From an uncultured Candidatus Saccharibacteria bacterium (GTDB lineage: Bacteria; Patescibacteriota; Andersenbacteria; UBA10190): DNA of 64,000 nt. How positions within the stretch are numbered: position 1 is the stretch's first letter; every line of letters begins with the position of its first letter. Made by a program: the position numbers and the translations under genes. Of this stretch, positions 1,862 to 42,608 are shown one piece after another. The DNA lies in the NCBI GenBank assembly GCA_964443125.1, contig CAYUBL010000002.1, positions 35,243 to 99,242 of the forward strand. The letters are read 5' to 3'. The notes under the pieces were generated by a model. The model was not told where the DNA came from, made no database searches, and was given only the letters and a program-made list of their open reading frames with translations.

Positions 1862-3712
1862 ATGAAATTCTCTTATTCCATTCTCAAGCAGCTGGTTCCG
1901 AGCATGAAGCTTTCTCCAAAAGAACTTGCCGAGCTTTTGACGATGAAAAGTTTTGAAACCGTGGTTGATCGGGAGTATGTGATTGATCCACTTATTCGGG
2001 CGGTGAAAATCGTGAAACTCGAGAAGCATCCCAATGCCGATCGGCTTCGTCTGGCGACCGTAACAGATGGAGAGAGCGAGGTGCGGGTCGTATGCGGCGC
2101 GCCGAACATTGCAACAGGCCAGGTGGTGCCGTATGCGCCTCCCGGTACGACGGTATATGGGGATGACGGATCCACGTTCGTGCTGCAAGAAGCTGTTATT
2201 CGCGGGGAGAAGAGCCCGGGCATGCTGAACTCGTTGCGCGAACTGGGCGTATCGGATAATCACGGCGGCATTGCCATTCTTCCGGAAGATACGCCGCTCG
2301 GATCCCGACTTGCGGACCACTTGCCAAGCGATACTATTCTGGATATTGATGTCCTGCCCGATCGGATTCATGATGCAAGCACGCATTACGGGATGGCGCG
2401 AGAGATTACGGCGCTCCTATCGGCGTCCATGCAAGAAGCAACAACCGTTTCGCTGCTTGCGGCATGGGGGCAGGTTGCGCCAATGGGGGAATTTAACGTC
2501 CCAGAGCATAATACCGGGCGTTCTTTGGCATTCGATCCGGATGCGCCGTCTCGGTATGCGGGTATTCCTATCAATCGAGAAGACGTGCGCGATATTCTGG
2601 GGAGGTTGAGATTTTTGGTGGATGCAACGGGAGATACATGGTATGTGACGCCTCCATCCGATCGCATCGATATCCTCGGTGAGCACAATCTGATTGATGA
2701 AGTGGTTCGCGTGTACGGTCTCGATGGAATCCCGTCCAAGAAATACGAGGGCGTCCGCCCGCTGCCGGTAACGGACAGCGTGTATTGGGAGCGGAATATT
2801 CGATCGCTTCTTGTTGAGCGGGGGTTCACAGAAACATACGGCTATTCGTTTGAGGATGAGCGGTTCGCAGCGCTTGTGGGAGCTGATCGGCATCCGCATG
2901 TGGAGTTGAAAAATCCCATGGCGCCGGAACTGAAGAAGCTGCGGTACTCCATGCTCCCGGGGCTGCTTGCCGCAATGGTAAAAAGCAGGGATGAAGTGCA
3001 TCGCGATCGCAAGGAAAATGAACGGGCGCTGTTTGAAATCGGACGCGTATACCATCGGGGGGATGGCGGCATGGTCCCGGGCGTGATCGAGCGGAAAGTG
3101 GTTTCCGGAATATTGGTCGGCGATCAGTCGTCTTTGCAAGAAATCTTGGATGCCATTCGAGCGCTCTTCCGGATAGAGCCGGGGGAGATGATTGCATTGC
3201 CGGAGAGTAAACCCTTTGCCAAAGCGTTTCGGATGCAGTATGCCGGCGAGTTTTTTGGCATAACGTATGTATTGAGCGATGAATTATTGCAAAAAATAAA
3301 ATACCGCTTGCCGCTCGCGGCGTTCGAGATAAGCTTTGCTGCACTCATGAAGCATGCGCCGGATGTTGAAATACCTGTTCGGACAATAGACGAAATTCGC
3401 GCGCAGAAGGATACCCCCTCGCAGTTTGTTGAACTTCCGAAATATCCAAGCGCTTTTCGGGATATCTCGCTTATTATCGACCCCATGCATCGCATCGATG
3501 CTGTCGAATCATTCATCGCAGAAAAGGGCGGACACATGGTTGCTGACGTAGATTTGTTCGACGAGTATACTCCCAAGACGGGCAATCGCAGCTTGGCATT
3601 CCATATCGAATACCGCGTGCCGGATCGCACCCTGACAGACAAGGAAGTAGACGAGGCACACAAAAAAATCGAGCACGCCCTGAAAAAGCAATTCGACGCG
3701 GAAATTCGGTAA
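1862..3712 (+). CDS. pheT: Phenylalanine--tRNA ligase beta subunit (short, 616 aa)
   Basis: N-terminal tRNA-binding fold (KLEKHPNADRLRLATVTDGESEVRVVCGAPN). Begins 1 nt after pheS. Shorter than the typical ~800-aa PheT. Confidence 0.85.
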   Translation: MKFSYSILKQLVPSMKLSPKELAELLTMKSFETVVDREYVIDPLIRAVKIVKLEKHPNADRLRLATVTDGESEVRVVCGAPNIATGQVVPYAPPGTTVYGDDGSTFVLQEAVIRGEKSPGMLNSLRELGVSDNHGGIAILPEDTPLGSRLADHLPSDTILDIDVLPDRIHDASTHYGMAREITALLSASMQEATTVSLLAAWGQVAPMGEFNVPEHNTGRSLAFDPDAPSRYAGIPINREDVRDILGRLRFLVDATGDTWYVTPPSDRIDILGEHNLIDEVVRVYGLDGIPSKKYEGVRPLPVTDSVYWERNIRSLLVERGFTETYGYSFEDERFAALVGADRHPHVELKNPMAPELKKLRYSMLPGLLAAMVKSRDEVHRDRKENERALFEIGRVYHRGDGGMVPGVIERKVVSGILVGDQSSLQEILDAIRALFRIEPGEMIALPESKPFAKAFRMQYAGEFFGITYVLSDELLQKIKYRLPLAAFEISFAALMKHAPDVEIPVRTIDEIRAQKDTPSQFVELPKYPSAFRDISLIIDPMHRIDAVESFIAEKGGHMVADVDLFDEYTPKTGNRSLAFHIEYRVPDRTLTDKEVDEAHKKIEHALKKQFDAEIR

Positions 3713-3761
3713 CGACGATAGGAGCTGCTATACTGATACTGTTTATCTTTTACCTTTTTCT

Positions 3762-4157
3762 ATGAACGAAGAACCGCAAGGAGCGCCGCTCCCTATTAAG
3801 ATTATTTCTATCTTGCTCATGATATTCGGCGTTGCCTGGATTGCTATAGCAGGCCTAACGCTTGCCTTTATAGGTATCCCCGGCCTTGCCCTCATAGCTG
3901 CCCTGCTTGGTGCCTCAATTATTGTAATCGCTATCGGATTGCGCAAGATGAAGCGATGGGCGTTGTATCTCTATACCGCAGGGGCTGTGCTGCAGACGAC
4001 CAGTACGCTCAATAATATATTAGGATTGTTGAGGACGGAGGGTGTGCCAGTATCTGTGCTGTGGAAGGAAGGGGAAGTGATCGTATACCTGCTCTGGATA
4101 GTAGTTGACATAGCGATATTGGCATACCTTTGGAAAAACAAGCGGCTCTTTCGGTAG
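3762..4157 (+). CDS. Small membrane protein (hypothetical)
   Basis: 131 aa with three or four TM helices. No recognisable motif. Confidence 0.4.
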   Translation: MNEEPQGAPLPIKIISILLMIFGVAWIAIAGLTLAFIGIPGLALIAALLGASIIVIAIGLRKMKRWALYLYTAGAVLQTTSTLNNILGLLRTEGVPVSVLWKEGEVIVYLLWIVVDIAILAYLWKNKRLFR

Positions 4158-4167
4158 GGGGGTATAA

Positions 4168-6165
<1,998 letters not shown>

Positions 6166-6189
6166 GCAGCGCTCCAAAACCGGGGGTGA

Positions 6190-6609
6190 CTATTTTATAT
6201 ATCCAGCTTTAAATAAATCCTGCAAAGTGTCTCTGTATGAAAATGCTATTTTTAATTCTTTTGCTTCACTATAGCTAAAAAATTTCCATTGAGACGCTTC
6301 TTCTTTTTGCAAAGTAATTTTACCAGACCATTTCCCGAGATAGACAAGTGAGAAATATCGTTTTCCATTATGTATACTTTCATAAAAGTTAAATTTATCT
6401 TGAGGAACAAAAATCAGCCCTACCTCTTCTCGGACTTCTCGAATGACAGTATCTTGAATAGTTTGGTCTGTTTCCTCAACTCCTCCTGAGGGGAATGTCC
6501 AATAACCTGGATATGCAGCAACTGCATCTGATCTTTTGATAAGCAATATTTTCCCATGTTCTATAATTGCTGCTGATCCCGCAATTTTTCCGAGGGGCAT
6601 TGGTTTCAT
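6190..6609 (-). CDS. NUDIX hydrolase
   Basis: Nudix box GGVEETDQTIQDTVIREVREEVGL. Confidence 0.75.
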   Translation of the reverse strand: MKPMPLGKIAGSAAIIEHGKILLIKRSDAVAAYPGYWTFPSGGVEETDQTIQDTVIREVREEVGLIFVPQDKFNFYESIHNGKRYFSLVYLGKWSGKITLQKEEASQWKFFSYSEAKELKIAFSYRDTLQDLFKAGYIK

Positions 6610-6663
6610 TATTTATGAGTATAGCTTATTTTCGAGATTATAAACTGACTTATTGAGGGAGAG

Positions 6664-6692
6664 TTGCATATTTTTACCATATCGTCTATAGT
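6664..6692 (+). promoter_or_regulatory. Putative promoter for secE-nusG-rplK-rplA (TTGCAT-17-TATAGT)
   Basis: Hexamers with 17-nt spacing about 50 nt upstream of secE. A GC hairpin plus TTTT follows at 6702-6720. Confidence 0.45.
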
Positions 6693-6742
6693 ATCAACAA
6701 CGGCCCTGAAGGGCTGTTTTAAGAACAAGGAATACGAGATCC

Positions 6743-6934
6743 ATGGCAAAAGTCTTTAATGTAGCGTTCGTGAAAGAAGCTCGGGAGGAACTGAAAAAGG
6801 TTTCTTGGCCGTCTCGAGAGACTGCCGTGCGATATACGCTGATCGTTATTATCGGATCGCTTGTGGTCGGGATGATTGTCGGAGCGATGGATTATATTCT
6901 TTCCCTTTTGTTTAAAACATTTATTTTCTCATAA
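6743..6934 (+). CDS. secE: Preprotein translocase subunit SecE
   Basis: 63 aa with a single C-terminal TM, immediately upstream of nusG. N-terminal KEAREELKKVSWPS matches SecE. Confidence 0.8.
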   Translation: MAKVFNVAFVKEAREELKKVSWPSRETAVRYTLIVIIGSLVVGMIVGAMDYILSLLFKTFIFS

Positions 6935-6943
6935 CGAATTCCC

Positions 6944-7495
6944 ATGGAGGAAAACGCACAACCGACGGATGGAAGAGGGTGGTATGTTCTCCACACCTAT
7001 TCCGGATATGAAGACAACGTAGCCCGCAATTTGCGGCAGCGTATCGAGTCAATGGGCATGGAAGACAAGATTTTCCAGGTCATTGTTCCGCGCGAAAAAA
7101 AGATCCGCGTGAAGAACGGCAAGCGGCGAACCATCGAAGAGCGGCTGTTTCCCGGATACGTCATTGTGGAAATGATCGTTACGGAAGATTCCTGGTATGT
7201 GGTTCGCAATACGCCGAATGTGACCGGGTTTGTCGGCTCTGGCACCACGCCAACGCCCGTCTCGCAAGAAGAAATCAATCGGCTGCTTTCCCGCATGGGC
7301 GATGAAGAACCGAAGTACAAGATCGACGTTATCGAAGGAGATTCCGTGCGCATTATGGACGGACCGTTCAAGGAGTTCGAGGGCAAGATTTCGGAAGTCA
7401 ATGACGCCAAGGGTACCGTGAAGGTGCTGGTCAACGTCTTCGGCCGAGAAACGCCCGTTGAACTTGACTTTTTGCAGGTAAAGAAGGAAGGTTAA
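6944..7495 (+). CDS. nusG: Transcription termination/antitermination factor NusG
   Basis: NGN domain ([11 protein letters not shown]) and a C-terminal KOW ([21 protein letters not shown]). Confidence 0.9.
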
Positions 7496-7507
7496 TAATC
7501 GAATCCT

Positions 7508-7927
7508 ATGAAAGAAATTAAGACAATACTGAAGATCCAAATTCCGGGAGCAATGGCAACTCCGGCTCCTCCGGTAGGAACGGTGCTTGGTCCTCATGGC
7601 GTCAATCTGCAGGAATTCGTCACTCGATTTAACGACATGACCAAAGACATGAGGGGGGACATCGTTCCTGTGGAAGTGACGATTTACGCAGACCGGACGA
7701 TGGACTTGAAACTGAAGACATCCCCTGCCGCAGAGCTTCTAAAGAAAGCCGCAGGCGTGGGAAAGGGGTCGTCAAGTTCCAAAATAGACAAAGTCGGCAA
7801 GGTAACGAAAGCTCAAGTGAAAGAAATTGCGGAAAAGAAGATGGTGGATTTATCCGCTCGAGACATTCCTTCCGCGATGAAAATTATCGAAGGGACCGCA
7901 CGGTCCATGGGAATAACGGTTGAATAG
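7508..7927 (+). CDS. rplK: 50S ribosomal protein L11
   Basis: KIQIPGAMATPAPPVGTVLGPHGVNLQEF. Confidence 0.95.
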   Translation: MKEIKTILKIQIPGAMATPAPPVGTVLGPHGVNLQEFVTRFNDMTKDMRGDIVPVEVTIYADRTMDLKLKTSPAAELLKKAAGVGKGSSSSKIDKVGKVTKAQVKEIAEKKMVDLSARDIPSAMKIIEGTARSMGITVE

Positions 7928-7930
7928 CCT

Positions 7931-8608
7931 ATGCGAAGCAAGACATACAAATCGGTCCGCGAGAAGGTTGGAGAGAATGCAATGGATGTGCCGGCAGCGG
8001 TAGCATTCCTCAAGGAGCATACGCGAAAAAGCTTTGATGAAACGGTAGAAGCGCATATTGCGCTTGGGGTCGATGCAAAGAAGTCCGACCAGATGGTTCG
8101 CGGGAGCGTCGTGTTGCCTCACGGCACGCCGAAGCAAAAACGCGTGATTGTGTTTACGTCAGATGCGGCCAAGCAGGAAGCTGCGAAACAAGCCGGAGCG
8201 GTTCGCGCCGGAGGAGAGGAGCTTATCGCTGACATTGAAAAGAACGGCATTGCGGATATCGATATCGCAATTGCGTCTCCGGATATGATGCCGAAAATCG
8301 CAAAGGTGGCAAAAGTACTCGGTCCGAAAGGTCTGATGCCGAATCCGAAAACAGGCACGGTTACGCCGGATGTTGCGGCCGCCGTTTCGGAACTTGCTGC
8401 AGGAAAGGTTTCTTTTAAAATGGACGTGCAAGGAAATATGCATGTCGCGATTGCAAAGGCAAGCTGGGAAGCTGACAAGATCGTTGAAAATACCCAAGCA
8501 TTTATCGAAGCGGTGCGCGCAGCCCGGCCTTCGTCCCAGAAAGGAGAATTTCTCCGCAAGGTCGTGCTAAAGACCACCATGAGTCCCGCAGTACGGATTA
8601 GCCGGTAG
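7931..8608 (+). CDS. rplA: 50S ribosomal protein L1
   Basis: AFLKEHTRKSFDETVEAHIALGVDAKKSDQMVRGSVVLPHG. Confidence 0.95.
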   Translation: MRSKTYKSVREKVGENAMDVPAAVAFLKEHTRKSFDETVEAHIALGVDAKKSDQMVRGSVVLPHGTPKQKRVIVFTSDAAKQEAAKQAGAVRAGGEELIADIEKNGIADIDIAIASPDMMPKIAKVAKVLGPKGLMPNPKTGTVTPDVAAAVSELAAGKVSFKMDVQGNMHVAIAKASWEADKIVENTQAFIEAVRAARPSSQKGEFLRKVVLKTTMSPAVRISR

Positions 8609-8611
8609 CGC

Positions 8612-9301
8612 ATGCTGATCAGTTTCGACGGACTCGATTCTTCCGGAAAAGCGACGCAGTCTCGCTTGCTGTACGAGCATCTTCAAAATCGCGGCATTCG
8701 AACAGAAAAGTTTTGCACGCCGGATTACACCACTCCTTCCGGGAAAGAACTGAAAATGCGTCTGCAAAACAAACTTGGCAATTGGCAACAAACCCCATGG
8801 CAGGAAAAAATGGGGTTTTTTGCTGCAAATCGAAAAGAGCACAAAGAAGAGGTGCAGCGCGCCCTGCAGGAAGGCGCGGTCGTGATATATGATCGATACG
8901 TGCCCAGCAGTATCGTGTTTATGATCGAAGAAGCCGCATCTGAAGAGGCGCGTCAGACGCGGGAAGAAGTGCGCCGCAAGGTGATGCAGCTGGAATACGA
9001 AGAAAACGGCATGCCGCAGGAAGATATTTCCATTTTTCTGGATATTCCGCCTTATATCGCAATTGATTTGTTAGAAGGAAGAAAGGTGCACAGAGGGGAT
9101 GAAGATGAACAGACCGATCATATGCACGTGCAAGAAGCGCTGTATGCGGAATATATCCGTATCGCAGAGGAGTATCCTGAAAAGACGCTTCACATCCGAT
9201 GCATGGAGGGGGACAGGCTGCGAGGAATACAGGAAATCGAATCGCTGGTCAGGCAAGAGTTGGCAGCACGGTTCCCGGAACATACTAACTATTTCCTATG
9301 A
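8612..9301 (+). CDS. tmk: Thymidylate (dTMP) kinase
   Basis: P-loop ISFDGLDSSGKATQ and a DRY motif (VIYDRY). Starts 3 nt after the rplA stop. Confidence 0.75.
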   Translation: MLISFDGLDSSGKATQSRLLYEHLQNRGIRTEKFCTPDYTTPSGKELKMRLQNKLGNWQQTPWQEKMGFFAANRKEHKEEVQRALQEGAVVIYDRYVPSSIVFMIEEAASEEARQTREEVRRKVMQLEYEENGMPQEDISIFLDIPPYIAIDLLEGRKVHRGDEDEQTDHMHVQEALYAEYIRIAEEYPEKTLHIRCMEGDRLRGIQEIESLVRQELAARFPEHTNYFL

Positions 9302-9951
9302 AAAGCAATCCGTTCATCGTACTCGAAGCCCTCGATGCCGGCGGTAGCCAGACGCAAACAGACTTGCTGTGCGCTCGGCTCACGCAAGAGGGGTATAAGC
9401 CCCACCAGTATCATTTTCCGCAGGAAGATGCCGCGACCGGTCGGGTCGTTTATGACAAGTTCTTGCTGTACAAGAACAAATATCCATTCAGTCGCCGCGA
9501 ACAGGCGCTGTTGTATATCCAAGATTTTTATTCGAGACAAGAAGAAATGACCTCGCTGATCACCAGCGGATCCAGTCGCGATATCGTGGTGTCCGACCGC
9601 TATGCAACCAGCACAATGGCATATCAAACGATCGGATTGTCCGGCGCCAAGCGCAAGCAGATGCTCGATTGGATTACCTGGCTTTGTTACAAGGCAGCAC
9701 CCGCATTGCCCAAGCCGGACAGGGTGCTGTTTTTGGACACTCCGGTCGCAATATCTCTGCAGCGACTCAAAGGAAAAAAGAAGGATTTCTTTGAAACGAA
9801 AGAAAAGCTATCCGCAATCCGCAGCAGCTACCTCAAGCTGGCTACAGAGCAGAAGTGGCACGTGTTCAATAGCGTGGATGAAAAAGGAAGACAGCGGACG
9901 CGAGAAGATCTGCACGCGGAAATCTGGGAAACGGTAAAAAAGTTTCTGTAG
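9298..9951 (+). CDS. Thymidylate-kinase-like paralog with a degenerate P-loop
   Basis: Same fold signature (IVLEALDAGGSQTQ, VVSDRY) but the P-loop Lys/Thr are replaced by GGSQT. ATGA overlap with tmk suggests translational coupling. Confidence 0.6.
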   Translation: MKSNPFIVLEALDAGGSQTQTDLLCARLTQEGYKPHQYHFPQEDAATGRVVYDKFLLYKNKYPFSRREQALLYIQDFYSRQEEMTSLITSGSSRDIVVSDRYATSTMAYQTIGLSGAKRKQMLDWITWLCYKAAPALPKPDRVLFLDTPVAISLQRLKGKKKDFFETKEKLSAIRSSYLKLATEQKWHVFNSVDEKGRQRTREDLHAEIWETVKKFL

Positions 9952-9958
9952 CGCGCAT

Positions 9959-10570
9959 ATGGAAACGAAGCTGGTATTTTGGGATTTTGACGGCGTGATT
10001 GCAAGCACGTTCGAGCAAGCATACGAAATTATTTCTCGTACGAATCCAGATCTTACGCGCGAAGAATACCGCAAGCGGTTTGAGGGGAATGTAAATGATA
10101 CTATTTTCGAGACGAGTTCGGTGCGTGCGCGGGATTTTTTCGCAGCATACGAAAAAACCATTTTGCAAGGAGCGCTGATTCCGGGCATTGGCGATGTGAT
10201 TCAAGTATGTGCAGATGCATATACCAACAGCATCGTATCATCCACGACGTCGGATCTGGTGGACGGCTATTTAACCCATCATCAGCTGAGGCAGTATTTT
10301 GCGGAAATTCTCGGCAATGATGTTGCGCACAGCAAAGTCGAAAAAATGCAATTGGCCTTTGAGAAGTATGCATCATCGAATGAGCATGCGGTATTCATCA
10401 CCGATACCTTGGGAGATATCAGAGAGGCGAACAAGCTAGCTGTGCCAAGCATCGGCGTGCTGTGGGGGTTTCATGACAAGGAAACCTTGGAAAAAGGACG
10501 CCCTCATGCAATCGTCGAAACGCCGCAGGAGCTCATGAAAACGATAGAAGGCACGTTATCGAAAAGCTAA
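9959..10570 (+). CDS. HAD-superfamily hydrolase (phosphatase)
   Basis: Motif I FWDFDGVIAST, plus downstream HAD motifs (ITDTLGDI). Confidence 0.7.
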   Translation: METKLVFWDFDGVIASTFEQAYEIISRTNPDLTREEYRKRFEGNVNDTIFETSSVRARDFFAAYEKTILQGALIPGIGDVIQVCADAYTNSIVSSTTSDLVDGYLTHHQLRQYFAEILGNDVAHSKVEKMQLAFEKYASSNEHAVFITDTLGDIREANKLAVPSIGVLWGFHDKETLEKGRPHAIVETPQELMKTIEGTLSKS

Positions 10571-13291: not shown

Positions 13292-14167
13292 TTAGCTTTG
13301 CACTTTGAGCTTGGGTGCGCACACCCAGCCAATATCGTCTCTTCGCTTCCACCATGACATTTGCCGGTGGGCGTAGCGCATATTCGATTGCACCATTTTC
13401 TCGGTGTCGCAGTGCTCTTTGTAGTTCATCGTGTGCAAGAGCTTGGATTGAGGATGATGCTGTTTCAGTGTTGCTATTTCGTCTTCTAATCCGCTCTCTA
13501 CCATTTCTTCTGCCCGCTTTGCGATGCGTTTCCGGAGCGATTCCCAATCGGGGAATAAGCCGATCATGCAAGCATTCATGGGAGATGGCCGCTTGCTGCG
13601 AAGATCGGAAAATTTCTTTCCCGTGCTTTCCATGACCTCCAGTGCGCGGATGATGCGCCTGCGGTTGTGGGGCTCAATAAACTCTCGCGCATCCGGATCT
13701 TGTGCAAGCAGCATCTTGTATAAGTCATCGGCGGGTAATGATTCCAATGTGCGGCGAAGCGCATCGTTGGGCGCTACGTTCGGGATGGCATATCCGTCGA
13801 TAATCGCGTCGATGTACAGCATGGTTCCTCCCGCAATAATCGGCACAAGGCCGCGGCTTCGGATGATCGCAATTGCGTGCGTTGCATCGCGAATGTAGTC
13901 GGAAAGGGTGTACGAAGTATCAGGCGAGGCGATATTGAGAAGGTAGTGGTCTATGCCTTCGATGGTATCGGGAGTATCGGCTGCGTGCACGGCCGTGCTC
14001 CATGCGCTTTCAGGTTTTGCCGTGCCGATATTCATACCTGCATACACTTGGCGGGAGTCGGCGGAAATAACAGCTCCGCCCATGCGGCGAGCCATATCGA
14101 TTGCATATGCGGTTTTCCCCGATGCCGTCGGGCCGAGAACGGCAAAGATATCGTACTGTTCCATCAA
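13292..14167 (-). CDS. miaA: tRNA dimethylallyltransferase
   Basis: P-loop GPTASGKT and SADSRQVY. Convergent with gatB. Confidence 0.9.
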   Translation of the reverse strand: MMEQYDIFAVLGPTASGKTAYAIDMARRMGGAVISADSRQVYAGMNIGTAKPESAWSTAVHAADTPDTIEGIDHYLLNIASPDTSYTLSDYIRDATHAIAIIRSRGLVPIIAGGTMLYIDAIIDGYAIPNVAPNDALRRTLESLPADDLYKMLLAQDPDAREFIEPHNRRRIIRALEVMESTGKKFSDLRSKRPSPMNACMIGLFPDWESLRKRIAKRAEEMVESGLEDEIATLKQHHPQSKLLHTMNYKEHCDTEKMVQSNMRYAHRQMSWWKRRDDIGWVCAPKLKVQS

Positions 14168-17691: not shown

Positions 17692-18909
17692 CTACGGTCT
17701 TGATTGTTTTGCGATCTGCTCGACAGCGTCTTCGAGTTTAAGCGGACCTTCGCCGAATAGTTTGCTGCGCAGCGAAACCGTACCGTCGGTCATTTCTTTC
17801 TTGCCTGCAATGATGAGTACGGGAATTTTTTGCGATGATGCGAGTTGAATCTTTTTCCCGATTCGCTCCGATGTAGTGTCGACGGTTACGCGGACATTTT
17901 TTTCCTTCAGCTGACTTGCGATCTGTTCGGCGTATTCGTGTATGTCTTCCGCAATCGGAAGCACGGCAACTTGGACAGGGGAGAGCCAGAGGGGGAGATT
18001 GCCGTTGGTGTGCTCGAGCAGCATGGCGATAAACCGCTCGAATGAGCCCAGAATTGCGCGGTGAATCATTACCGGCCGCTGACGGCTGCCGTCTTCGGCC
18101 GTGTATTCCAGTTCAAAGCGCTCTGGCATATTAAAGTCGAGCTGCGCCGTTGCCAGCTGCCACGTGCGGCCGAGGCTGTCTTGTGCGGTAAAGTCTATTT
18201 TCGGTCCGTAAAATGCCGCTTCTCCTTCTTGTTTTTCTACGTTGGAAAACCCTTCCGCGCTCAGTGCGTCGGCGAGGATCTGTTCCGCTTGCTGCCAAAT
18301 TTCGTCGGAACCAAGGTATTTTTCCGGCGCATTCGGATCGCGCAGGGAAAGGCGGGCGGTCAGCTCAAAGTCGAATGCGCGGTAAAATTTCGTAATACTT
18401 TGCAGGATGCGGTTGATCTCTTCTTGAATTTGATCTTGCCGGCAAAATACGTGCCCGTCATCCTGGGTGATGGAGCGCACACGCGCCAGCCCCAAAAGCT
18501 CCCCGGCTTGTTCGTCGCGGTATACGGTTGTGATTTCTGAAAACCGAAGGGGCAAATCGCGGTAGCTGCGCAGCCTGCTCGCGTAGATTTGCGTATGGTG
18601 CGGGCAGTTCATCGGCTTGATGACAAAGTCATCGTCCTTGTGGCCTTTTACATGAAAAAGATCGTCTTTGAATTTATCCCAGTGGCCGGAGGTGTGGTAC
18701 AGCTCGGGTTTTGTGATGTGGGGTATCCATACGCGTTCATATCCAAGCGGTTCGATAATGGACTGGAGGAAGTTTTCCAGTTCGCGACGGATAACGGTGC
18801 CCTTGGGGGTAAACAAGGGAAGGCCCGGGCCGATGTGGTCCGAAAATGTAAACAAGTCGAGATCGTATCCGAGCTTGCGATGGTCCGGTTGGGGCGAGGT
18901 ATCTGCCAT
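17692..18909 (-). CDS. thrS: Threonine--tRNA ligase, catalytic plus anticodon-binding domains only
   Basis: Class II core (HRKLGYDLDLF ... TSGHWDKFKD ... FRDE) and a C-terminal anticodon-binding domain. 405 aa with no N-terminal TGS or editing domains. Confidence 0.85.
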   Translation of the reverse strand: MADTSPQPDHRKLGYDLDLFTFSDHIGPGLPLFTPKGTVIRRELENFLQSIIEPLGYERVWIPHITKPELYHTSGHWDKFKDDLFHVKGHKDDDFVIKPMNCPHHTQIYASRLRSYRDLPLRFSEITTVYRDEQAGELLGLARVRSITQDDGHVFCRQDQIQEEINRILQSITKFYRAFDFELTARLSLRDPNAPEKYLGSDEIWQQAEQILADALSAEGFSNVEKQEGEAAFYGPKIDFTAQDSLGRTWQLATAQLDFNMPERFELEYTAEDGSRQRPVMIHRAILGSFERFIAMLLEHTNGNLPLWLSPVQVAVLPIAEDIHEYAEQIASQLKEKNVRVTVDTTSERIGKKIQLASSQKIPVLIIAGKKEMTDGTVSLRSKLFGEGPLKLEDAVEQIAKQSRP

Positions 18910-35196: not shown

Positions 35197-35415
35197 CTAT
35201 CCATCCATCTGCATTCCTGAAGGACGATCGAGTAACCACTGCACTTGCTTTTCCAGAGCCTCAACGCGCTCTTCCAGTGTGAGTTTGGGCTTTGGCGGGG
35301 TAGCGGCCGATTCCGGCTCGTTCTTCTTCTTACATTCAGGGCACAGAGACTCATACCTGTCTACTGTGTAGCTAAACGGTTTGCCACATTTGGGGCAATT
35401 GTCTACTACTGCCAT
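35197..35415 (-). CDS. Small zinc-ribbon protein
   Basis: CPKCG...CPEC. GGAGA lies 8 nt upstream of the chosen ATG. Confidence 0.5.
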   Translation of the reverse strand: MAVVDNCPKCGKPFSYTVDRYESLCPECKKKNEPESAATPPKPKLTLEERVEALEKQVQWLLDRPSGMQMDG

Positions 35416-35449
35416 GCTGTTTCTCCGTAAAAAGGACGGGAACATTATT

Positions 35450-35525
35450 TGGTCCAGCGGGTAGGAGTCGAACCTACCTAAACGGGTTTTACAGACCCGC
35501 GCATCAGCCGCTCTGCCACCGCTGG
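35450..35525 (-). tRNA. tRNA-Tyr (GTA), archaeal/eukaryal-type
   Basis: 76 nt. C1:G72 pair, A73, anticodon GTA, short 5-nt variable arm; CCA encoded. Confidence 0.85.
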
Positions 35526-35526
35526 A

Positions 35527-35601
35527 TGGAGCCAGCTGTCGGGATCGAACCGACGACCTATTGTTTACAAAACAATTGCTCTACCACTGAGCTAAGCTGG
35601 C
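35527..35601 (-). tRNA. tRNA-Thr (TGT)
   Basis: 75 nt with anticodon loop TTTGTAA; CCA encoded. Lies 1 nt from tRNA-Tyr. Confidence 0.85.
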
Positions 35602-35631
35602 GTATCTTTATAAAATGTATACTATGAATAT

Positions 35632-36702
35632 ATGACAGAAAAACAGGAAATAATCAACCGTTTAACGAATAATCTTGCCGAGGTGATTACCGAAGAAGAG
35701 TTGCGATCTCGCCTGGAATCCGGGGAACAGCTCACTCATTACATTGGGTTTGAAATTTCCGGCTACGTGCATATCGGCCAGGGGATCATGAGCGCGCTGG
35801 TTATCAAGGATCTGCAAGCGCTCGGCGTACAGTGCACTATTTGGCTGGCAGACTGGCATACCGCAATCAATGGAAAGCTGGACGGTACGAAAGAAACGGC
35901 GGCAAAAATCGGCAAGGGATATTTTACGGAAGCGATGAAAGCATGTCTGTTGTCGGTCGGCGCCGATGCCGACGCGGTTGAGTTCCGTTTGGCGAGCGAT
36001 TGGTATAAACAAAACGAAGGAAGCTACTGGGATACGGTAATGAATGTCTTAAAGAACACAAGCATTGCACGACTGCAAAGGAGTATCAGTATTATGGGCA
36101 AGCAGGCAGGGGAAGATGTCGATGGCGCAACCATTATGTATCCGGCTATGCAAGTTGCCGATATATTTTTCCAAGACATCACAGTTGCGCATGCGAGCAT
36201 GGATCAGCGCAAAGCGCATGTCGTCATGCGAGATACGGCGGAAAAAGTGATGCCGGGGAAACCCAAGCCGGTGGCGCTGCATCACGCGCTGATCGACAGT
36301 CTTTCCGGAGAAAACAAGATGAGCAAATCCAAGCCTGATACGGCCGTATTCGTGCACGACAGCGAAGAAGAGATAGCTCGCAAAATCAAAAAAGCCTTTT
36401 GCGAAGAAAAGAATATCGAAAAAAACCCCATTCTCAACTGGACGAAAAACATATTGTTTTGGTCGCGCACAAAACCGTTTGTCATCGAACGGAAGCCGGA
36501 GCACGGCGGGGATGCATCATTTGATTCGTATGAAAACCTGGAAACGGCATATGCAAACGGCGACGTGCATCCGATGGACTTGAAGGCGGCAGTTGTTAAG
36601 GAAATTACTGCGCTGCTTGCACCCGCGCGGGAGCATTTTGCAAATCCTGAAATCGCCGCGTTCAAACAGGAATTGGATACCGTTATTGCAAAACGTACAT
36701 AA
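35632..36702 (+). CDS. tyrS: Tyrosine--tRNA ligase, archaeal/eukaryal type
   Basis: HIGH-region YIGFEISGYVHIGQG and KMSKS. Also matches the archaeal enzyme at EVITEEELR, MYPAMQVADI and HPMDLKAAV. No bacterial C-terminal S4 domain. Confidence 0.85.
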   Translation: MTEKQEIINRLTNNLAEVITEEELRSRLESGEQLTHYIGFEISGYVHIGQGIMSALVIKDLQALGVQCTIWLADWHTAINGKLDGTKETAAKIGKGYFTEAMKACLLSVGADADAVEFRLASDWYKQNEGSYWDTVMNVLKNTSIARLQRSISIMGKQAGEDVDGATIMYPAMQVADIFFQDITVAHASMDQRKAHVVMRDTAEKVMPGKPKPVALHHALIDSLSGENKMSKSKPDTAVFVHDSEEEIARKIKKAFCEEKNIEKNPILNWTKNILFWSRTKPFVIERKPEHGGDASFDSYENLETAYANGDVHPMDLKAAVVKEITALLAPAREHFANPEIAAFKQELDTVIAKRT

Positions 36703-36722: not shown

Positions 36723-36794
36723 GCCGATGTAGCTCAGTGGTAGAGCATTTCCATGGTAAGGAAAAGGTCGTGGGTCCGATTCCCACCATCGGCT
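36723..36794 (+). tRNA. tRNA-Thr (GGT)
   Basis: Acceptor GCCGATG/CATCGGC, anticodon loop ATGGTAA, T-arm GGTCCGATTCC. Confidence 0.85.
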
Positions 36795-36831
36795 CATTTC
36801 GTGATCCGACCTTGCTCGGCGCAGTCCGCGC

Positions 36832-38346
36832 TTGATGTACAATAGAAAGATGGCTTTTCTTTTTCGCCGGATGCTGATGTGGATCCTGCTGGCGCTCATC
36901 ATCGCGGGCGCGTATTTCTATTTCTTTGTGGAGCAGCAAGGACCTGAGAGCCGGGAGCCCAATCCTCAGGTGCTGCAGGCGGTGCATCGGGAAATCCCCG
37001 CAATTCATGCACTGGTGGTTCAAGAGGACGGCGATGCCGGCAATCGCCGCATGGTACAGTGCGAGGCGGGCAAGTGCTCCGTCCGTCGAGCGCCGGAATC
37101 AATCGAGGGGGAAGCGCTGTTCGATGGAGAGAACTGGTATCGCTATGCAAATGCGGGAGATGAAGCAAGGAAGCGGATCGTACTTGAACGAATAGATTCA
37201 TCCGGAGCCGCGCATACTATAACGGAAGAAAACATATTGGTACGCCCGCGCGATATGATTATCAGCGTGGATGGTGGAAAGCTGGCATACTTCCTCGACA
37301 ATATCAGCGATGCGAAAGGGCTAACGGAGCTGTGGGTATACGATAGCAAAGAGGGAGGCACTCGAGTGGTTGCGGAAAAGCTGACGAAGAACAATATTGC
37401 ATCTCCCGTCCGATGGAATGCGTCTTCCCGCGTGGCGTGGTTTTTACAAGAAGAAAAAAAGAAGCAGCTTACCGTTGTCCGCATGCATGGCGCAACGGCT
37501 GCAGCGGGCTTTGCGCATGTTGATTGGAATATTCATGCAAAAGCGGCGGAGAGCGGCGCAATGGATATCAATGATGACGCAACGCTGGTAGCATTTGCGG
37601 AAGAGTCGAGCGGGCCTGTTTCCAAGCTGTTTGTTGCCAAGGAGGGCGGAGGAATGATCCAAAAGTCCGTGAAAGGCACCGTCGTGTTTCTCCAATGGAC
37701 GCAGGGCGACTCGCTCGTGTACGCAGTACAGGACGGGGGAGATATATCCTTCTGGATGGCAAATACGGAAAAGGAGTGGCCGATTACCCGCATGGCAGCA
37801 ACGTTTGAGTCCGCTCGAAGCGTACATGCGTCGCAGGGGAAAAGCTTGGCGTTTGTTGCGAGTCCGCGGAATGGCGAGACCCATGTATACGTATTGCAAA
37901 TTGAAAGCGGGAATATAAAAGATGAAGCGATTGTCCCGCAATTCGCCGGACGGACGCATCTCGTACAAGCGTCGGCAAGCAATTCGGGGGCGGCGTTTGC
38001 GCAATTCGCCGAGCATGCTATTTCCGATAGCGAGCTGATTGCATTCATAGAGCAGCATATTCAGGAGATTTCCGGCCAGCAGTCGGCGCGGCTCACGCGT
38101 ATTTTGGTGACCGATGCTTTGCATACCTGCCTCGTAGATTATGTTGACGATGCCGGGCAAGAGCAGCGCATCCAGGTGGCAATTATGGATATTTTGCACC
38201 CGGAATGGCGGGTATTGGGGCGGTATACGGTCGTAAACGGCAAGTGGATCCGCTCGGAAGAGGGGGCGGGAAGAGAGCCTGGAGTTGTTCGATTATATGA
38301 ATGGGAAGAAGCGCTTTCCCAGTGGATTTTGAAAAATACGTTCTAA
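36832..38346 (+). CDS. Hypothetical membrane-anchored protein (beta-propeller-like ectodomain)
   Basis: N-terminal TM and a long beta-rich body. No catalytic motif. Alternative start at 36850. Confidence 0.5.
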   Translation: MMYNRKMAFLFRRMLMWILLALIIAGAYFYFFVEQQGPESREPNPQVLQAVHREIPAIHALVVQEDGDAGNRRMVQCEAGKCSVRRAPESIEGEALFDGENWYRYANAGDEARKRIVLERIDSSGAAHTITEENILVRPRDMIISVDGGKLAYFLDNISDAKGLTELWVYDSKEGGTRVVAEKLTKNNIASPVRWNASSRVAWFLQEEKKKQLTVVRMHGATAAAGFAHVDWNIHAKAAESGAMDINDDATLVAFAEESSGPVSKLFVAKEGGGMIQKSVKGTVVFLQWTQGDSLVYAVQDGGDISFWMANTEKEWPITRMAATFESARSVHASQGKSLAFVASPRNGETHVYVLQIESGNIKDEAIVPQFAGRTHLVQASASNSGAAFAQFAEHAISDSELIAFIEQHIQEISGQQSARLTRILVTDALHTCLVDYVDDAGQEQRIQVAIMDILHPEWRVLGRYTVVNGKWIRSEEGAGREPGVVRLYEWEEALSQWILKNTF

Positions 38347-38398
38347 ATTGGCTCTATTGAGCCAATTATAAATTCTGGGAAAAACGGACAAATAGCAC

Positions 38399-38428
38399 TT
38401 GACATTTTTCCCAATATTGTAGTACTAT
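38399..38428 (+). promoter_or_regulatory. Putative promoter (TTGACA-18-TACTAT) upstream of the first surface-protein gene
   Basis: Hexamers about 40 nt upstream of the 38467 start. Confidence 0.45.
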
Positions 38429-38466
38429 CACAGGTTAATCTTTAACCTAACTAATTAACGTACGCT

Positions 38467-39684
38467 ATGGTACAAGCAATGAGTCGAACACAAATACTGG
38501 GAACAATGCTGGTTGCACTTGCGGCAGTACTGTTTGCAGGCGTTGCGCCTGATGCAAACGCATCCGCTCCTGCAACGTTTAAATTCACCTATCAGCAGGA
38601 AATGGTGCATTTTCTCAACAGCTTGGGAAAATATCCATATATCAAGGCTGATTCGGTTCTCGGAAACAGCGAGAATGCGCAAAAGCTTTGCTATTTGAAG
38701 GGGTACGAAAAAGTGGCCGGATTTACGGTTCGCAAGTATTCGTCTCCATCAAATAACACGATCGCGTACTGGGATGGCCATGGATGGTCTACCAAGAACG
38801 CAGCAAAGCTGGGTAATCCCGGCCAGCTCGACACGCTGACGTGTTCGGATCCGTTTGGAGCGGCTATGCCAACTCCGACTCCGACGCCAAAACCAACACC
38901 GAAGCCAACTCCAAAACCAACACCGCATCCGACTCCAACTCCTACCCCTGAATCCAAGGACGTGATTATCACGATGTTGATTAATGGACAGGCAAAACCG
39001 GAGGGAATTGACGCAAATACTTCGTTTACCCTTTCATGGCATGCGAAGAATGCAAACTTCTGCAAAGCGTCTCGTGATTGGTCTGGAAACAAGCCGGTAT
39101 CCGGTTCCGTAGTTATTACGCCAACGGAAGGACGAACCTTCTCGTACCGGCTCGATTGCGGAAACACCAAGACCGGGGAGTCTGCGCACAAGACGATCAA
39201 TCTGACTGTCTTTGGCGAAGAGGAAACTCCTACGCCTACTCCGGAAGCAACTCCAACTCCGACTCCTACCCCAACTCCTGCAGTATTCGCAACATGCGTC
39301 AATGCTGACGGGAAGCTGATTGCGGTTACGATCGACTCGTTGGAAAACTGCAACGTAAACACGAACACGCAAACGATTAGCTTGAATATCGACAACAGCG
39401 CGAACAACAGCGCGAATAACAGTTCGAACAACAGCTCCGAAAACAAGGCTGTAGCTAACAACTCCGGCAACAGCAACAAAGTGAGCGTGAATCAGGAAGT
39501 TGATTCAGAAAAGCAAGGAAGGATCGCAGGAGCAGCTGCAATCCACACAGTTCGCCCAGTATCGGCTGTGCCGGTACCGGTAACTGCAAAGACCGGTGCG
39601 GGAGACATGGCAGCGCTTGCCTTCTCCACAATCTCCGGAGGAAGCGGACTTGCATACATCATCCGCAAAACCCTGCTCGGATAA
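38467..39684 (+). CDS. Secreted Pro/Thr-linker surface protein with C-terminal sorting-signal-like tail
   Basis: Signal peptide. A conserved ~95-aa N-terminal domain shared with the next gene. PTPTPKPTPKP linkers; an N/S-rich segment. Tail is VPVTAKTGAGD, then hydrophobic, then RKTLLG. Confidence 0.7.
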   Translation: MVQAMSRTQILGTMLVALAAVLFAGVAPDANASAPATFKFTYQQEMVHFLNSLGKYPYIKADSVLGNSENAQKLCYLKGYEKVAGFTVRKYSSPSNNTIAYWDGHGWSTKNAAKLGNPGQLDTLTCSDPFGAAMPTPTPTPKPTPKPTPKPTPHPTPTPTPESKDVIITMLINGQAKPEGIDANTSFTLSWHAKNANFCKASRDWSGNKPVSGSVVITPTEGRTFSYRLDCGNTKTGESAHKTINLTVFGEEETPTPTPEATPTPTPTPTPAVFATCVNADGKLIAVTIDSLENCNVNTNTQTISLNIDNSANNSANNSSNNSSENKAVANNSGNSNKVSVNQEVDSEKQGRIAGAAAIHTVRPVSAVPVPVTAKTGAGDMAALAFSTISGGSGLAYIIRKTLLG

Positions 39685-39793
39685 CAACGATTAAAGAGGA
39701 CATAGAAACCCCGCTTGCGCAAGCGGGGTTTCTGCTATACGGTGAACTGTTGGCCCTTTTATCTCTTTATTTACCCATAAGCATATTCATTCC

Positions 39794-42124
39794 ATGAATA
39801 AATTTCTTTCGTACGGAGCAGGAATAGGTATCGCGGCAGGGCTTATGTTTGCGCTTCTTGTGCAGGCGGCGCCCAAGGCTCACGCGGCTCTTCCGTCCAC
39901 ATACACGTTCACCTATCAGGAACAGATGGTGCAGTTCCTCAACAGCCTGGGAATTTATCCGTTTATCAAGGCTGATTCTGTCCGCGCGAACACCACAAAC
40001 GCGTATAAACTCTGTAATCTCAAGGGGTATTCCACCGTTTCAGGGTACACGGTGCGCAAGTATTCTTCTCCGGAAAACAATACGCTTGCGACATGGAATG
40101 AATCGTTGCAGCAATGGACTACGCAGAATGCAAAAAAGGCGGGTAACCCCGGCCAGCTCGACACGCTGATGTGTTCCAATCCAATCGTAAAGCCGACGCC
40201 TACTCCAACTCCGACACCAACACCAACACCTACTCCAACGCCGACTCCAACACCTACGCCAAATGCGGCACCGGTAGCAAATGCGAAGGTGAGTGTGAAC
40301 GGCGGCACCCCATCTGCCAGCGTGAGTATTGAACGCGGCGTGCCGGTTTCTATTAGTCTTTCCGCAGAGGGCAGCTTTGATCCGAACGGATGGAATACCC
40401 AGCTCACTGGCGTATCTACAGGAGGAAAGTGCGAATGGAATTCCGACTTGAACCAGGGAAGCCCGACGTTTGATCACACGGTATTTAACCCTGCATCGCC
40501 AGGGGCCTGCAACATCGGCCTTGGCACGCTTACATTCTTCGATGCACCCGGAACATACACCTACCATGTATTGCGCATCACCGACGCTGCAGGCGCAGTG
40601 TCGAATGTAGCATCGGTTTCAGTGACGGTGTTTGCAAGCGCAACGCCGACCCCAAAGCCGTCTCCGACTCCAACGCCGAGCCCGACGCCAACTCCCACCC
40701 CAACGCCTTCTCCAACGCCTATCGTTGATGTAGCAACAAGCTTGGAATGTCCGGTCATTCACGGGACGGTAACGCCGGGCGCAACGAAGATTTCTGTGCA
40801 ATTGCATCCGACGCCTTCTTCGGCATCCAAGTCGGGGCACGTGATCCATTGGAGCTCTTCGCTTGGGACGTCATTCGTTGATCCGGACCAATCGACGACG
40901 AATGGACAGGGAATTGCATCCACTGACTTTATCCTGCCATTTGACGCCGGAATTAGTGGCACGGCAACCGTAACCGCGCAATTCCAGGGATCAACGGTTG
41001 GCAATCAGCATTATCAATCGTCCAGCTGTACGATTTCTTTCGCCTACGATTCGCCGCTGCTTCCGTCCCCGACGCCTACTCCAACTCCGACACCAAGCCC
41101 AACTCCAACACCAACTCCCACACCAACGCCTACGCCAAGCCCGACTCCGTCTCCTACACCGTCTCCGACTCCAATTCCAAATAATGCGCCCGTAGCCGAT
41201 GCGAAAGTAAGTATCAACGGCGCAACGGCAGTACACCACTTTACCGTAACGCGAGGCGTGCCGGTAACGGTTGGGCTTTCGTCTGCAGACAGTTTTGATC
41301 CGAACGGATGGAGCACGCCGAATGTCGGAGTATCTGCAGGAGGAAAATGCGAATGGAATTCCGACTTGAATCAGGGCAGCCCGACGTTCGAATCGATCGT
41401 CCATAATCCGGCAGCGCCATTTAGCTGCAACATAGGCCTCGGAACGCTGACGTTCTTCGACACCCCGGGAACATATACATACCACGTACTCCGCATTACC
41501 GACGCTGCAAATGCAGTATCGAATGTCGCTGCGGTCCAGGTAACTGTGCTTCCGGGACAAGAACCAAGTCCGACGCCAACACCGACTCCAACGCCGAGCC
41601 CGACACCTACGCCAAGTCCTTCGCCGACACCAACTCCTACACCTACCCCCACACCAACGCCGACTTGCAGCGATGGGATCGATAATGACCATGACGGATT
41701 CGTAGACAGCCACGATTCCGACTGCCACACGGACCATAATCCGAAGAATCCGAATTCATACGATCCGAACGGAAATGAAGACGGAAAGAATCAGGCTCAG
41801 TGTTCTGATTCAAAGGACAACGACAATGACGGAGCGATCGACGGCGGAGATGCAAACTGCCACACGGACGGCAACCCGAATAACCCGAACTCCTTTAATC
41901 CGCATGGCAGCGAGTTTCCGACGGTAACGCCGACTCCGACAGTGCCTCCAGTCTCTCTTTCAACCGGAAACCAGCAGAAGCAGGGCCAGTCGATACGCCT
42001 GAAGATCAACAACAGCGCAAATAATTCTTCGAATAACAGCTCCAACAACAGCTCGGAGAACAAAGCAGAGGCGAAAAACGAAGGGAATAGCAACGAGGTC
42101 ATCATTAACCAAAAAGCAGACTAG
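39794..42124 (+). CDS. Large secreted Pro/Thr-linker surface protein (paralog of 38467..39684)
   Basis: Signal peptide and the shared N-terminal domain. Two ~125-aa repeats. Two Cys/Asp motifs resembling the MopE-type metal-binding motif. N/S-rich tail. Confidence 0.7.
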   Translation: MNKFLSYGAGIGIAAGLMFALLVQAAPKAHAALPSTYTFTYQEQMVQFLNSLGIYPFIKADSVRANTTNAYKLCNLKGYSTVSGYTVRKYSSPENNTLATWNESLQQWTTQNAKKAGNPGQLDTLMCSNPIVKPTPTPTPTPTPTPTPTPTPTPTPNAAPVANAKVSVNGGTPSASVSIERGVPVSISLSAEGSFDPNGWNTQLTGVSTGGKCEWNSDLNQGSPTFDHTVFNPASPGACNIGLGTLTFFDAPGTYTYHVLRITDAAGAVSNVASVSVTVFASATPTPKPSPTPTPSPTPTPTPTPSPTPIVDVATSLECPVIHGTVTPGATKISVQLHPTPSSASKSGHVIHWSSSLGTSFVDPDQSTTNGQGIASTDFILPFDAGISGTATVTAQFQGSTVGNQHYQSSSCTISFAYDSPLLPSPTPTPTPTPSPTPTPTPTPTPTPSPTPSPTPSPTPIPNNAPVADAKVSINGATAVHHFTVTRGVPVTVGLSSADSFDPNGWSTPNVGVSAGGKCEWNSDLNQGSPTFESIVHNPAAPFSCNIGLGTLTFFDTPGTYTYHVLRITDAANAVSNVAAVQVTVLPGQEPSPTPTPTPTPSPTPTPSPSPTPTPTPTPTPTPTCSDGIDNDHDGFVDSHDSDCHTDHNPKNPNSYDPNGNEDGKNQAQCSDSKDNDNDGAIDGGDANCHTDGNPNNPNSFNPHGSEFPTVTPTPTVPPVSLSTGNQQKQGQSIRLKINNSANNSSNNSSNNSSENKAEAKNEGNSNEVIINQKAD

Positions 42125-42328: not shown

Positions 42329-42537
42329 AAAGAGGCCCCGTATTAGCCAAATGGCAATGCGTGGCTCTTGTAAGGGTTCAAAATCTTCGCGTTCCCCGAT
42401 GAAGAGGTAGCTTACGGCGTCTCCAAAATCGCAACCCGCAGCTATATATCGTTTTTCTGCTTGTTGGTCAGTCAAAAATCGCTTGAAAAAACGAGACATT
42501 TTGCTTTCTCCTAAAAAGAGCAGGATTGATCGGCGGG

Positions 42538-42608
42538 CAGGGGTGGAAGGAATCGAACCCTCAGTCTGGGATTTGGAGTCCCATGGTTTACCATTAACCG
42601 ACACCCCT
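42538..42608 (-). tRNA. tRNA-Trp (CCA)
   Basis: Starts AGGGGTG as in E. coli tRNA-Trp (A1:U72). Anticodon loop CTCCAAA; discriminator G. Confidence 0.8.

Follow-up and report, generated by a model that had tools for sequence, protein, structure and literature searches.

How does a bacterium come to decode tyrosine by archaeal rules? The question is raised by a 64-kb stretch of contig CAYUBL010000002.1 (assembly GCA_964443125.1; hereafter the window, meaning the whole stretch that was analysed), in which a tRNA-Tyr gene and a gene for tyrosyl-tRNA synthetase (TyrRS), both with archaeal identity features, lie close together among bacterial genes. A G1:C72 first pair with a long variable arm in bacteria, against C1:G72 with a short variable loop in archaea and eukaryotes, is the classic instance of a barrier between domains to synthetase exchange, and this tyrosine identity barrier underlies the orthogonal pairs with which the genetic code is expanded. 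We conclude, with a probability of roughly 0.88, that the window derives from a member of the Candidatus Andersenbacteria, in the candidate phyla radiation (CPR), which uses archaeal tyrosine identity: a TyrRS of archaeal descent together with a C1:G72 tRNA-Tyr that is probably a remodelled resident gene.

The tRNA-Tyr(GUA) gene occupies 76 nt at positions 35450..35525 of the minus strand, where ARAGORN called it in the 64-kb window and where the Rfam tRNA model scores 55.5 bits (E 1e-10). Segmented on its own strand, its 5' half reads CCAGCGG-UG-GCA-GAGCGGCUGA-UGC-G-CGGGU-CUGUAAA-ACCCG and its 3' half UUUAG-GUAGG-UUCGACU-CCUAC-CCGCUGG-A-CCA. This is a class I tRNA that carries the whole archaeal/eukaryal identity set, with C1:G72, A73, a GUA anticodon and a variable loop of 5 nt (within the expected 4-5 nt; UUAGG in the feature table, UUUAG in the segmented sequence), and it lacks both marks of a bacterial class II tRNA-Tyr, G1:C72 and a variable arm of at least 10 nt. 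The D-stem has 3 bp (GCA/UGC) with G13.A22, the D-loop GAGCGGCUGA contains a GAGCGGC motif, and the anticodon loop, CUGUAAA, places A at position 37. Thermodynamic folding recovers the acceptor, anticodon and T arms with an unremarkable z-score of -1.64 and misses the 3-bp D-stem, so it is the Rfam model and the covariation that support the cloverleaf. An earlier note on this DNA had described the same minus-strand gene, with its C1:G72 pair, A73 and 5-nt variable loop, and would have abandoned the idea had the molecule folded only with a long arm and G1:C72; ARAGORN, Rfam and the sequence itself bear the description out, and the fold is a class I cloverleaf. The gene encodes its CCA end in full, which among the 11 genome-derived loci considered below is true of the window copy only.

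The covariation comes from a family that extends well beyond the window. One metagenome pattern scan, in which the D-arm, anticodon loop and T-loop were the only fixed parts, returned 55 loci. Class I tRNA-Tyr genes with C1:G72 and A73 account for 31 of the 55, about 20 are canonical long-arm tRNA-Tyr genes with G1:C72 (a few with U1:A72), and one locus, L042, joins C1:G72 to an 18-nt arm. An archaeal-type TyrRS is found near 21 of the 31 class I genes and a bacterial-type TyrRS near none of them (0/31). Since MAFFT put a 1-nt length difference into the anticodon stem, the 22 distinct class I sequences were segmented by structure for the counting of pairs. Across these sequences not one of 440 stem cells departs from Watson-Crick pairing, compensatory double changes occur at 10 of the 20 pairs, and C1:G72, C2:G71, A73, U8, G9 and G13.A22 are invariant; the members also share their D-arm and a GUAGG/CCUAC T-stem. 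Such a pattern is the signature of a selected and functional tRNA, with identity constraint on its acceptor end.

The synthetase is encoded on the plus strand at 35632..36702 and is 356 aa long. It scores 367.9 bits against NCBIfam NF006330 (PRK08560, archaeal-type TyrRS; cutoff 220) and 79.7 bits, under the cutoff of 113.8, against TIGR00234 for bacterial tyrS, while all models of tryptophanyl-tRNA synthetase (TrpRS) failed (trpS, 93.5 against a cutoff of 176.75). Pfam finds the class I W/Y catalytic domain PF00579 alone, at residues 31-329, and no S4 or S4-like C-terminal domain within the 356 residues; towards the C-terminus the alignment with the archaeal anticodon-binding domain continues to residue 340. 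The closest solved structure is P. horikoshii TyrRS 2cyc (E 1.9e-88), and the strong solved relatives are all archaeal or eukaryal TyrRS. The protein had been recognized earlier by the motifs YIGFEISGYVHIGQG, KMSKSKP and HPMDLKAAV, which are indeed present in the translation of 35632-36702(+), and by the lack of the bacterial S4 domain; the comparison of bacterial and archaeal models that had been proposed as a check falls on the archaeal side, as does the domain content. Since the enzyme has no S4-like domain, the long variable arm of a bacterial tRNA-Tyr would not be needed.

Residues were mapped by alignment to the M. jannaschii enzyme (MjaTyrRS), in a sequence confirmed to be identical to 1j1u, and the roles of recognition residues follow a structural paper on TyrRS complexes from the three kingdoms (PMC1934993). 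The tyrosine pocket is kept (Y37, Y170, Q174, D177 and Q192, corresponding to Mja Y32, Y151, Q155, D158 and Q173), as are the readers of the C1:G72 pair (R150, R193 and K194; Mja R132, R174 and K175) and of G34 (H313 and D316; Mja H283 and D286). In fold and domain set, too, the enzyme agrees with the M. jannaschii TyrRS-tRNA-Tyr complex (PDB 1J1U) and with 2CYC. It differs from MjaTyrRS, to which it is ~38% identical, in its signature motifs (HIGQ at residues 47-50 and an intact KMSKS at 229-233, against HLGH and KMSSS) and at position 291, which is His where M. jannaschii has Phe261 and the relatives have F, Y or H. The conserved residues lead us to hypothesize a homodimeric class Ic TyrRS of archaeal descent, in which Arg150, Arg193 and Lys194 would read the C1:G72 pair, A73 would be read through the backbone near Leu220, and His313 and Asp316 would read G34 together with the aromatic residue at 291. 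The protein is predicted to be an active enzyme. The C1:G72 pair and A73 are normally present in bacterial tRNA-Pro as well.

The genome around this pair is bacterial. The order secE-nusG-rplK-rplA lies at 6.7-8.6 kb of the window, and the contig carries bacterial-type pheS, gyrB, dnaE and rodA as well as RF1, rsmH, an FtsI-type penicillin-binding protein, gatB, miaA, thrS, a sortase, YceG and glycosyltransferases; the bacterial surroundings named in the earlier note (rplKA, nusG, RF1 and genes of the dcw cluster) are thus readily recognized. GC content is flat across the TyrRS/tRNA-Tyr locus, and TyrRS codon usage is native to the host contig, with a divergence from pooled housekeeping genes of 0.09, compared with 0.06-0.37 for the housekeeping genes themselves. 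The tRNA-Trp(CCA) gene found by ARAGORN at 42536..42608 on the minus strand (AGGGGUG...CACCCCU-G) provides a control: it keeps the bacterial identity base G73, and because it does so, archaeal identity is confined to the tyrosine system.

Among GTDB species representatives the nearest relatives of the TyrRS belong to Candidatus Andersenbacteria metagenome-assembled genomes (MAGs), at 59-80% identity, followed by another CPR sequence at ~45-50% and by archaeal sequences at ~35-44%. An exact-sequence lookup returned no record of the window protein, and the genome adds a new member, at species level, to the Andersenbacteria lineage. At 11 Andersenbacteria genome loci a tRNA-Thr(UGU)-tRNA-Tyr pair stands beside the TyrRS gene, in most of them with tRNA-Thr(GGU) and tRNA-Trp after it, and every tRNA-Tyr at these loci has C1:G72, A73 and a 4-5-nt loop, with compensatory changes in the acceptor stem. 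The layout tRNA-Thr/tRNA-Tyr/TyrRS/tRNA-Thr is repeated on about 20 metagenome contigs. The MAGs titled 'uncultured Candidatus Saccharibacteria' (L001, L002, L007, L008, L009, L011 and L013) have the Andersenbacteria type of TyrRS and synteny, and their Saccharibacteria labels are probably generic or wrong.

The archaeal-type tyrosine pair of this lineage is correctly identified, and it has been known since 2017. Archaeal-type TyrRS with C1-G72 tRNA-Tyr in CPR bacteria was described by Mukai, Reynolds, Crnkovic and Soll (2017, Life 7:8; PMC5370408), who in the legend to their Figure 2 count Andersenbacteria among five major bacterial groups that have such a TyrRS. That paper infers DPANN donors for the CPR enzymes, notes the variable arm that many CPR tRNA-Tyr molecules retain, and hence their derivation from bacterial tRNA-Tyr, and concludes that synthetase and tRNA identity were replaced together. 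The window combines a bacterial genome, an archaeal-type TyrRS and a C1-G72 tRNA-Tyr in one organism, and shares with the systems described there the phenomenon, the lineage, the C1-G72 tRNA-Tyr, a DPANN-like enzyme and a bacterial-derived tRNA. It differs in that no GTDB species representative has a TyrRS more than about 80% identical to its own, and the placement of TyrRS inside a thrU-tyrU/thrT cluster and the evidence from the D-arm are not discussed in the text consulted.

It is this placement that bears on the origin of the tRNA. The TyrRS reading frame had been put 140 nt from tRNA-Tyr, which is incorrect: the distance from the 5' end of tRNA-Tyr to the start of the frame is 106 nt, and 75 of these are taken up by a tRNA-Thr(UGU) gene that had gone unmentioned (35527..35601, minus strand; ARAGORN; Rfam 73.5 bits). 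This equivalent of thrU lies on the same strand as tRNA-Tyr and 1 nt upstream of it. The order in E. coli is thrU(UGU)-tyrU-glyT-thrT(GGU)-tufB-secE-nusG-rplKA, and the succession Thr(UGU)-Tyr is common to E. coli thrU-tyrU and most of the related loci, so that the window tRNA-Tyr sits in the ancestral thrU-tyrU slot. On the other side of the TyrRS gene lies a tRNA-Thr(GGU) gene, the equivalent of thrT (36723..36795, plus strand; ARAGORN; Rfam 71.6 bits), whose position downstream of TyrRS is conserved in related loci and which closes an ancestral bacterial tRNA cluster now housing the TyrRS gene.

The body of the tRNA points in the same direction as its position. With E. coli tyrU the window gene shares, besides the slot after thrU, the D-arm architecture (a CCC/GGG stem with loop GAGCGGCCAAA in tyrU, GCA/UGC with GAGCGGCUGA here), the GAGCGGC loop, A37 and A73; it has neither the G1:C72 pair and 13-nt variable arm of tyrU, nor does its enzyme match the 424-aa TyrS with an S4-like domain. 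M. jannaschii tRNA-Tyr is alike in C1:G72, A73, GUA and a short variable loop, and differs in its 4-bp D-stem and G37; these archaeal body features, known here from a single reference sequence and so a limited test, are not those of the window gene, with its 3-bp D-stem and A37. An A36-A37-A38 loop is typical of MiaA substrates and is a bacterial/eukaryal rather than an archaeal trait, and the window encodes a MiaA (tRNA i6A37 transferase) at 13292..14167 on the minus strand (TIGR00174, 201 bits; cutoff 148.65), which is consistent with that loop and presumably connected to it. The window-type D-arm also occurs in canonical G1:C72 long-arm tRNA-Tyr, and in the canonical class II gene of L075 the entire D-arm and the GUAGG/CCUAC T-stem are common to class I members. 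At 19 of 19 archaeal TyrRS loci, finally, there is no tRNA gene within about 5 kb. The bacterial D-arm, A37, the thrU-tyrU slot, the tRNA-Tyr genes of L075 and L042 and the absence of tRNA genes near archaeal TyrRS together favour rewriting in place, and we propose that a resident bacterial tRNA-Tyr gene was most likely rewritten, rather than an archaeal gene imported. The 1:72 pair of the resident gene would have been flipped and its variable arm lost, and the TyrRS gene would have come to lie within the ancestral thrU-tyrU...thrT cluster. The suggestion of the earlier note that synthetase and tRNA identity set were replaced together holds as far as the identity set is concerned; the tRNA gene itself was probably not replaced.

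The synthetases found at this kind of locus are more diverse than their tRNAs. In a bootstrapped neighbour-joining tree, the TyrRS proteins encoded beside class I tRNA-Tyr make up at least four groups: a clade of Andersenbacteria (100% bootstrap), a clade of L069/L076/L044/L050/L090 (85%), L043 with Aenigmarchaeota (88%), and a distant HIGY-type clade of L047/L062/L067/L082 (100%). The Andersenbacteria clade, L013 and the L069/L044 clade join Nanopusillus/Nanobsidianus at 81%, nested among archaeal sequences. We suspected L043 of being an archaeal contig; its neighbours, thyX and an Asp racemase shared with L074, point to a bacterium without being decisive, and L074 carries an Ile(GAU)-Ala(UGC) pair. 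Between the loci L067 (6393-7418) and L069 (2686-3819) the tRNA-Tyr genes are identical and nucleotide identity in the flanks is 70-87%; their TyrRS proteins, which belong to different clades, show 72% identity in the first 25 residues, only 31% beyond these and 31.5% overall. This hints that the body of the TyrRS was exchanged in situ, which agrees with the domain swap reported by Mukai et al. (2017).

In L044 (Ga0209211_10004545, 2778-9964) both kinds of tRNA-Tyr are present. The thrU slot, next to tRNA-Thr(UGU) and ddl, holds a class II G1:C72 gene (9728-9814), a class I C1:G72 gene at 5301-5376 lies just upstream of an archaeal-type TyrRS (2778-3905) in the same orientation, and between the two modules a large serine recombinase (6800-8401) abuts tRNA-Thr(GGU). 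L044 may represent a transitional or a coexistence state. We considered whether its tRNA-Tyr/TyrRS module could have integrated as an element at tRNA-Thr(GGU) and rejected this, as a search for att-like direct repeats gave none and its only hit was the resemblance of the tRNA-Thr genes to one another. A tentative model, to which we give less than even odds, is that one bacterial-derived class I tRNA-Tyr family exists in several CPR lineages, that its locus became, after the identity flip, a site of serial TyrRS replacement by foreign homologues, and that L044 is a surviving transitional genome. The origin of the tRNA, the linkage to the tRNA cluster and the serial replacement of TyrRS are to be taken as leads rather than established results.

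Other explanations of the archaeal pair start from where it resides. CPR bacteria and DPANN archaea co-occur, and their bins are sometimes cross-contaminated (PMC5370408), so DPANN DNA might have been joined to a bacterial contig during assembly or binning. Here a single contig with flat GC and native codon usage carries bacterial genes to the left and right of the locus, bacterial-type tRNA-Thr genes enclose the TyrRS, and the arrangement is repeated in more than 30 independent assemblies; the possibility of a foreign contig, foreseen as grounds for doubt, gives way to a compositionally native one whose synteny is kept in many independent assemblies, and an artefact is effectively refuted. 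A genuine pair might instead be an extra, orthogonal system, with a bacterial TyrRS and a class II tRNA-Tyr elsewhere in the genome doing the bulk of the charging. Beckwithbacteria carry both TrpRS/tRNA-Trp systems (PMC5370408), and L044 has both tRNA-Tyr classes on one contig. In the 64-kb window, to which the genome search extends, neither a bacterial tyrS nor a class II tRNA-Tyr was detected (ARAGORN; tblastn with E. coli TyrS), and bacterial tyrosine genes are also missing from the flanks of related loci, up to 10 kb; neither the window nor the Andersenbacteria loci nor the 55 metagenome loci yielded a bacterial-type TyrRS. CPR genomes are small and seldom keep duplicate synthetases, and the native codon usage of the TyrRS likewise speaks against an auxiliary copy. 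The tRNA-Tyr in the housekeeping slot is itself a C1:G72 class I gene in the window and at 10 other Andersenbacteria loci, which makes an auxiliary role distinctly improbable, and we infer that the archaeal-type pair is the sole tyrosine system of the cell.

A further pair of explanations accepts the archaeal identity and differs on how it was acquired. An archaeal tRNA-Tyr and TyrRS may have arrived as one cassette that displaced the bacterial tRNA-Tyr. The two genes adjoin in the window and at most related loci; in L044 the class I tRNA-Tyr directly precedes a TyrRS of the same orientation, with the class II gene still in the thrU slot and a recombinase between; several acceptor stems of the family (CCGGCGG/CCGCCGG) equal that of M. 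jannaschii tRNA-Tyr; and PMC5370408 speaks of CPR tRNAs of 'bacterial or archaeal origins'. The 3-bp D-stem, G13.A22, GAGCGGC loop and A37, however, fit a bacterial and not an archaeal tRNA-Tyr, no such cassette is seen at archaeal TyrRS loci (0/19 with a tRNA gene within about 5 kb), the window gene keeps the ancestral slot, 1 nt behind tRNA-Thr(UGU), and the L044 module has no flanking att-like repeats, and we regard joint transfer as unlikely, if still the most serious competitor of rewriting in place. The opposite idea, that CPR bacteria inherited archaeal tyrosine identity vertically from LUCA, the last common ancestor of all life, needs no transfer at all, and a LUCA with archaeal identity sets is raised in the same paper. 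The tRNA family is, however, accompanied by TyrRS of at least four clades among which archaeal lineages are interspersed, a pattern that fits repeated transfer, and the neighbour-joining tree suggests that CPR TyrRS are polyphyletic within Archaea; the class II-type D-arm implies a long-arm ancestor; C1:G72 tRNAs that still have a long arm exist (L042; PMC5370408); and the trait is patchy within the CPR. Vertical retention is accordingly very improbable.

Several points weigh against the reading that we prefer, an Andersenbacteria bacterium with a transferred TyrRS and a remodelled resident tRNA. The fourth residue of the HIGH motif is Gln, though archaeal relatives vary at this position too (H/W/T/S/Q). 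The literature searched yielded no biochemistry on any CPR TyrRS, nor any later experimental work on these enzymes. The search for a second system spans 64 kb of the genome, so that a bacterial tyrS or a class II tRNA-Tyr may lie elsewhere, and L044, although its TyrRS is of another clade, carries both tRNA-Tyr classes. The comparison with archaeal tRNA-Tyr relies on one M. jannaschii sequence and textbook knowledge. Because the metagenome scan selected on the D-arm motif, the sharing of that arm with class II genes is not an unbiased test of origin, and the TyrRS tree is a neighbour-joining tree of this pattern-biased sample.

A laboratory analogue of the natural situation is available in E. 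coli, whose native TyrRS/tRNA-Tyr pair has been exchanged for an archaeal or a eukaryal one (PMC5370408, references 17 and 18). The engineered strain shows that a bacterium is viable on a tyrosine pair of archaeal identity; it differs from the window in that enzyme and tRNA were both imported, whereas the tRNA of the window was apparently remodelled from a resident gene. Bacteria that have passed the barrier in nature imply that tRNA identity is not hard-wired to domain. Because that point was made in 2017 for the same lineage, the window adds one genome and no new principle. The additions are modest: evidence for rewriting of the tRNA inside the thrU-tyrU cluster, the linkage of TyrRS to that cluster, and the suggestion that different TyrRS clades have occupied one slot. 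CPR TyrRS, judged by sequence, are also candidates for new orthogonal pairs.

The window contains six tRNA genes by ARAGORN, and the 1-nt gap on a shared strand makes it probable that tRNA-Thr(UGU) and tRNA-Tyr form a dicistronic precursor. The tRNA-Thr(UGU) has an encoded CCA, and RNase P cleavage at C1 of tRNA-Tyr would leave it a 1-nt trailer. The start codon of TyrRS is separated from this divergent operon by an AT-rich spacer of 30 nt (35602..35631), too short for a conventional TyrRS leader. A promoter and terminator scan detected neither a convincing promoter within the spacer nor any overall enrichment, and no Shine-Dalgarno sequence fitting the TyrRS start was seen in 35602-35631; since the spacer lacks both, the TyrRS mRNA may be leaderless or have its promoter inside a tRNA gene.

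Some loci of the metagenome scan have features of their own. Five contigs (L038, L065, L066, L089 and L092) hold dense tRNA arrays with a long-arm U1:A72 tRNA-Tyr and the same D-arm motif, and may be phage or mobile tRNA arrays. The L090 contig bears an IS110 transposase along with a class I tRNA-Tyr and an archaeal-type TyrRS, and one of its clustered tRNA genes, at 10037-10111(+), has CUA (amber) as its anticodon; we rejected this tRNA as a tRNA-Tyr-like molecule, given its G1:C72 pair and different body.

Within the window, the ThrRS gene at 17692-18909(-) encodes only 404 aa, aligned to positions 170-565 of the thrS model, and its N-terminal TGS/editing region seems to be missing. Directly downstream of tRNA-Tyr, an open reading frame of 82 aa (35197-35445, minus strand) has a CxxC...CxxC arrangement that is zinc-ribbon-like, and no Pfam match. 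From tRNA-Thr(GGU) to tRNA-Trp, at 36832-42124(+), run three successive large frames of 504, 405 and 776 aa without a Pfam match; in the 405-aa frame the N-terminus is signal-like and long Pro-Thr repeats are present.

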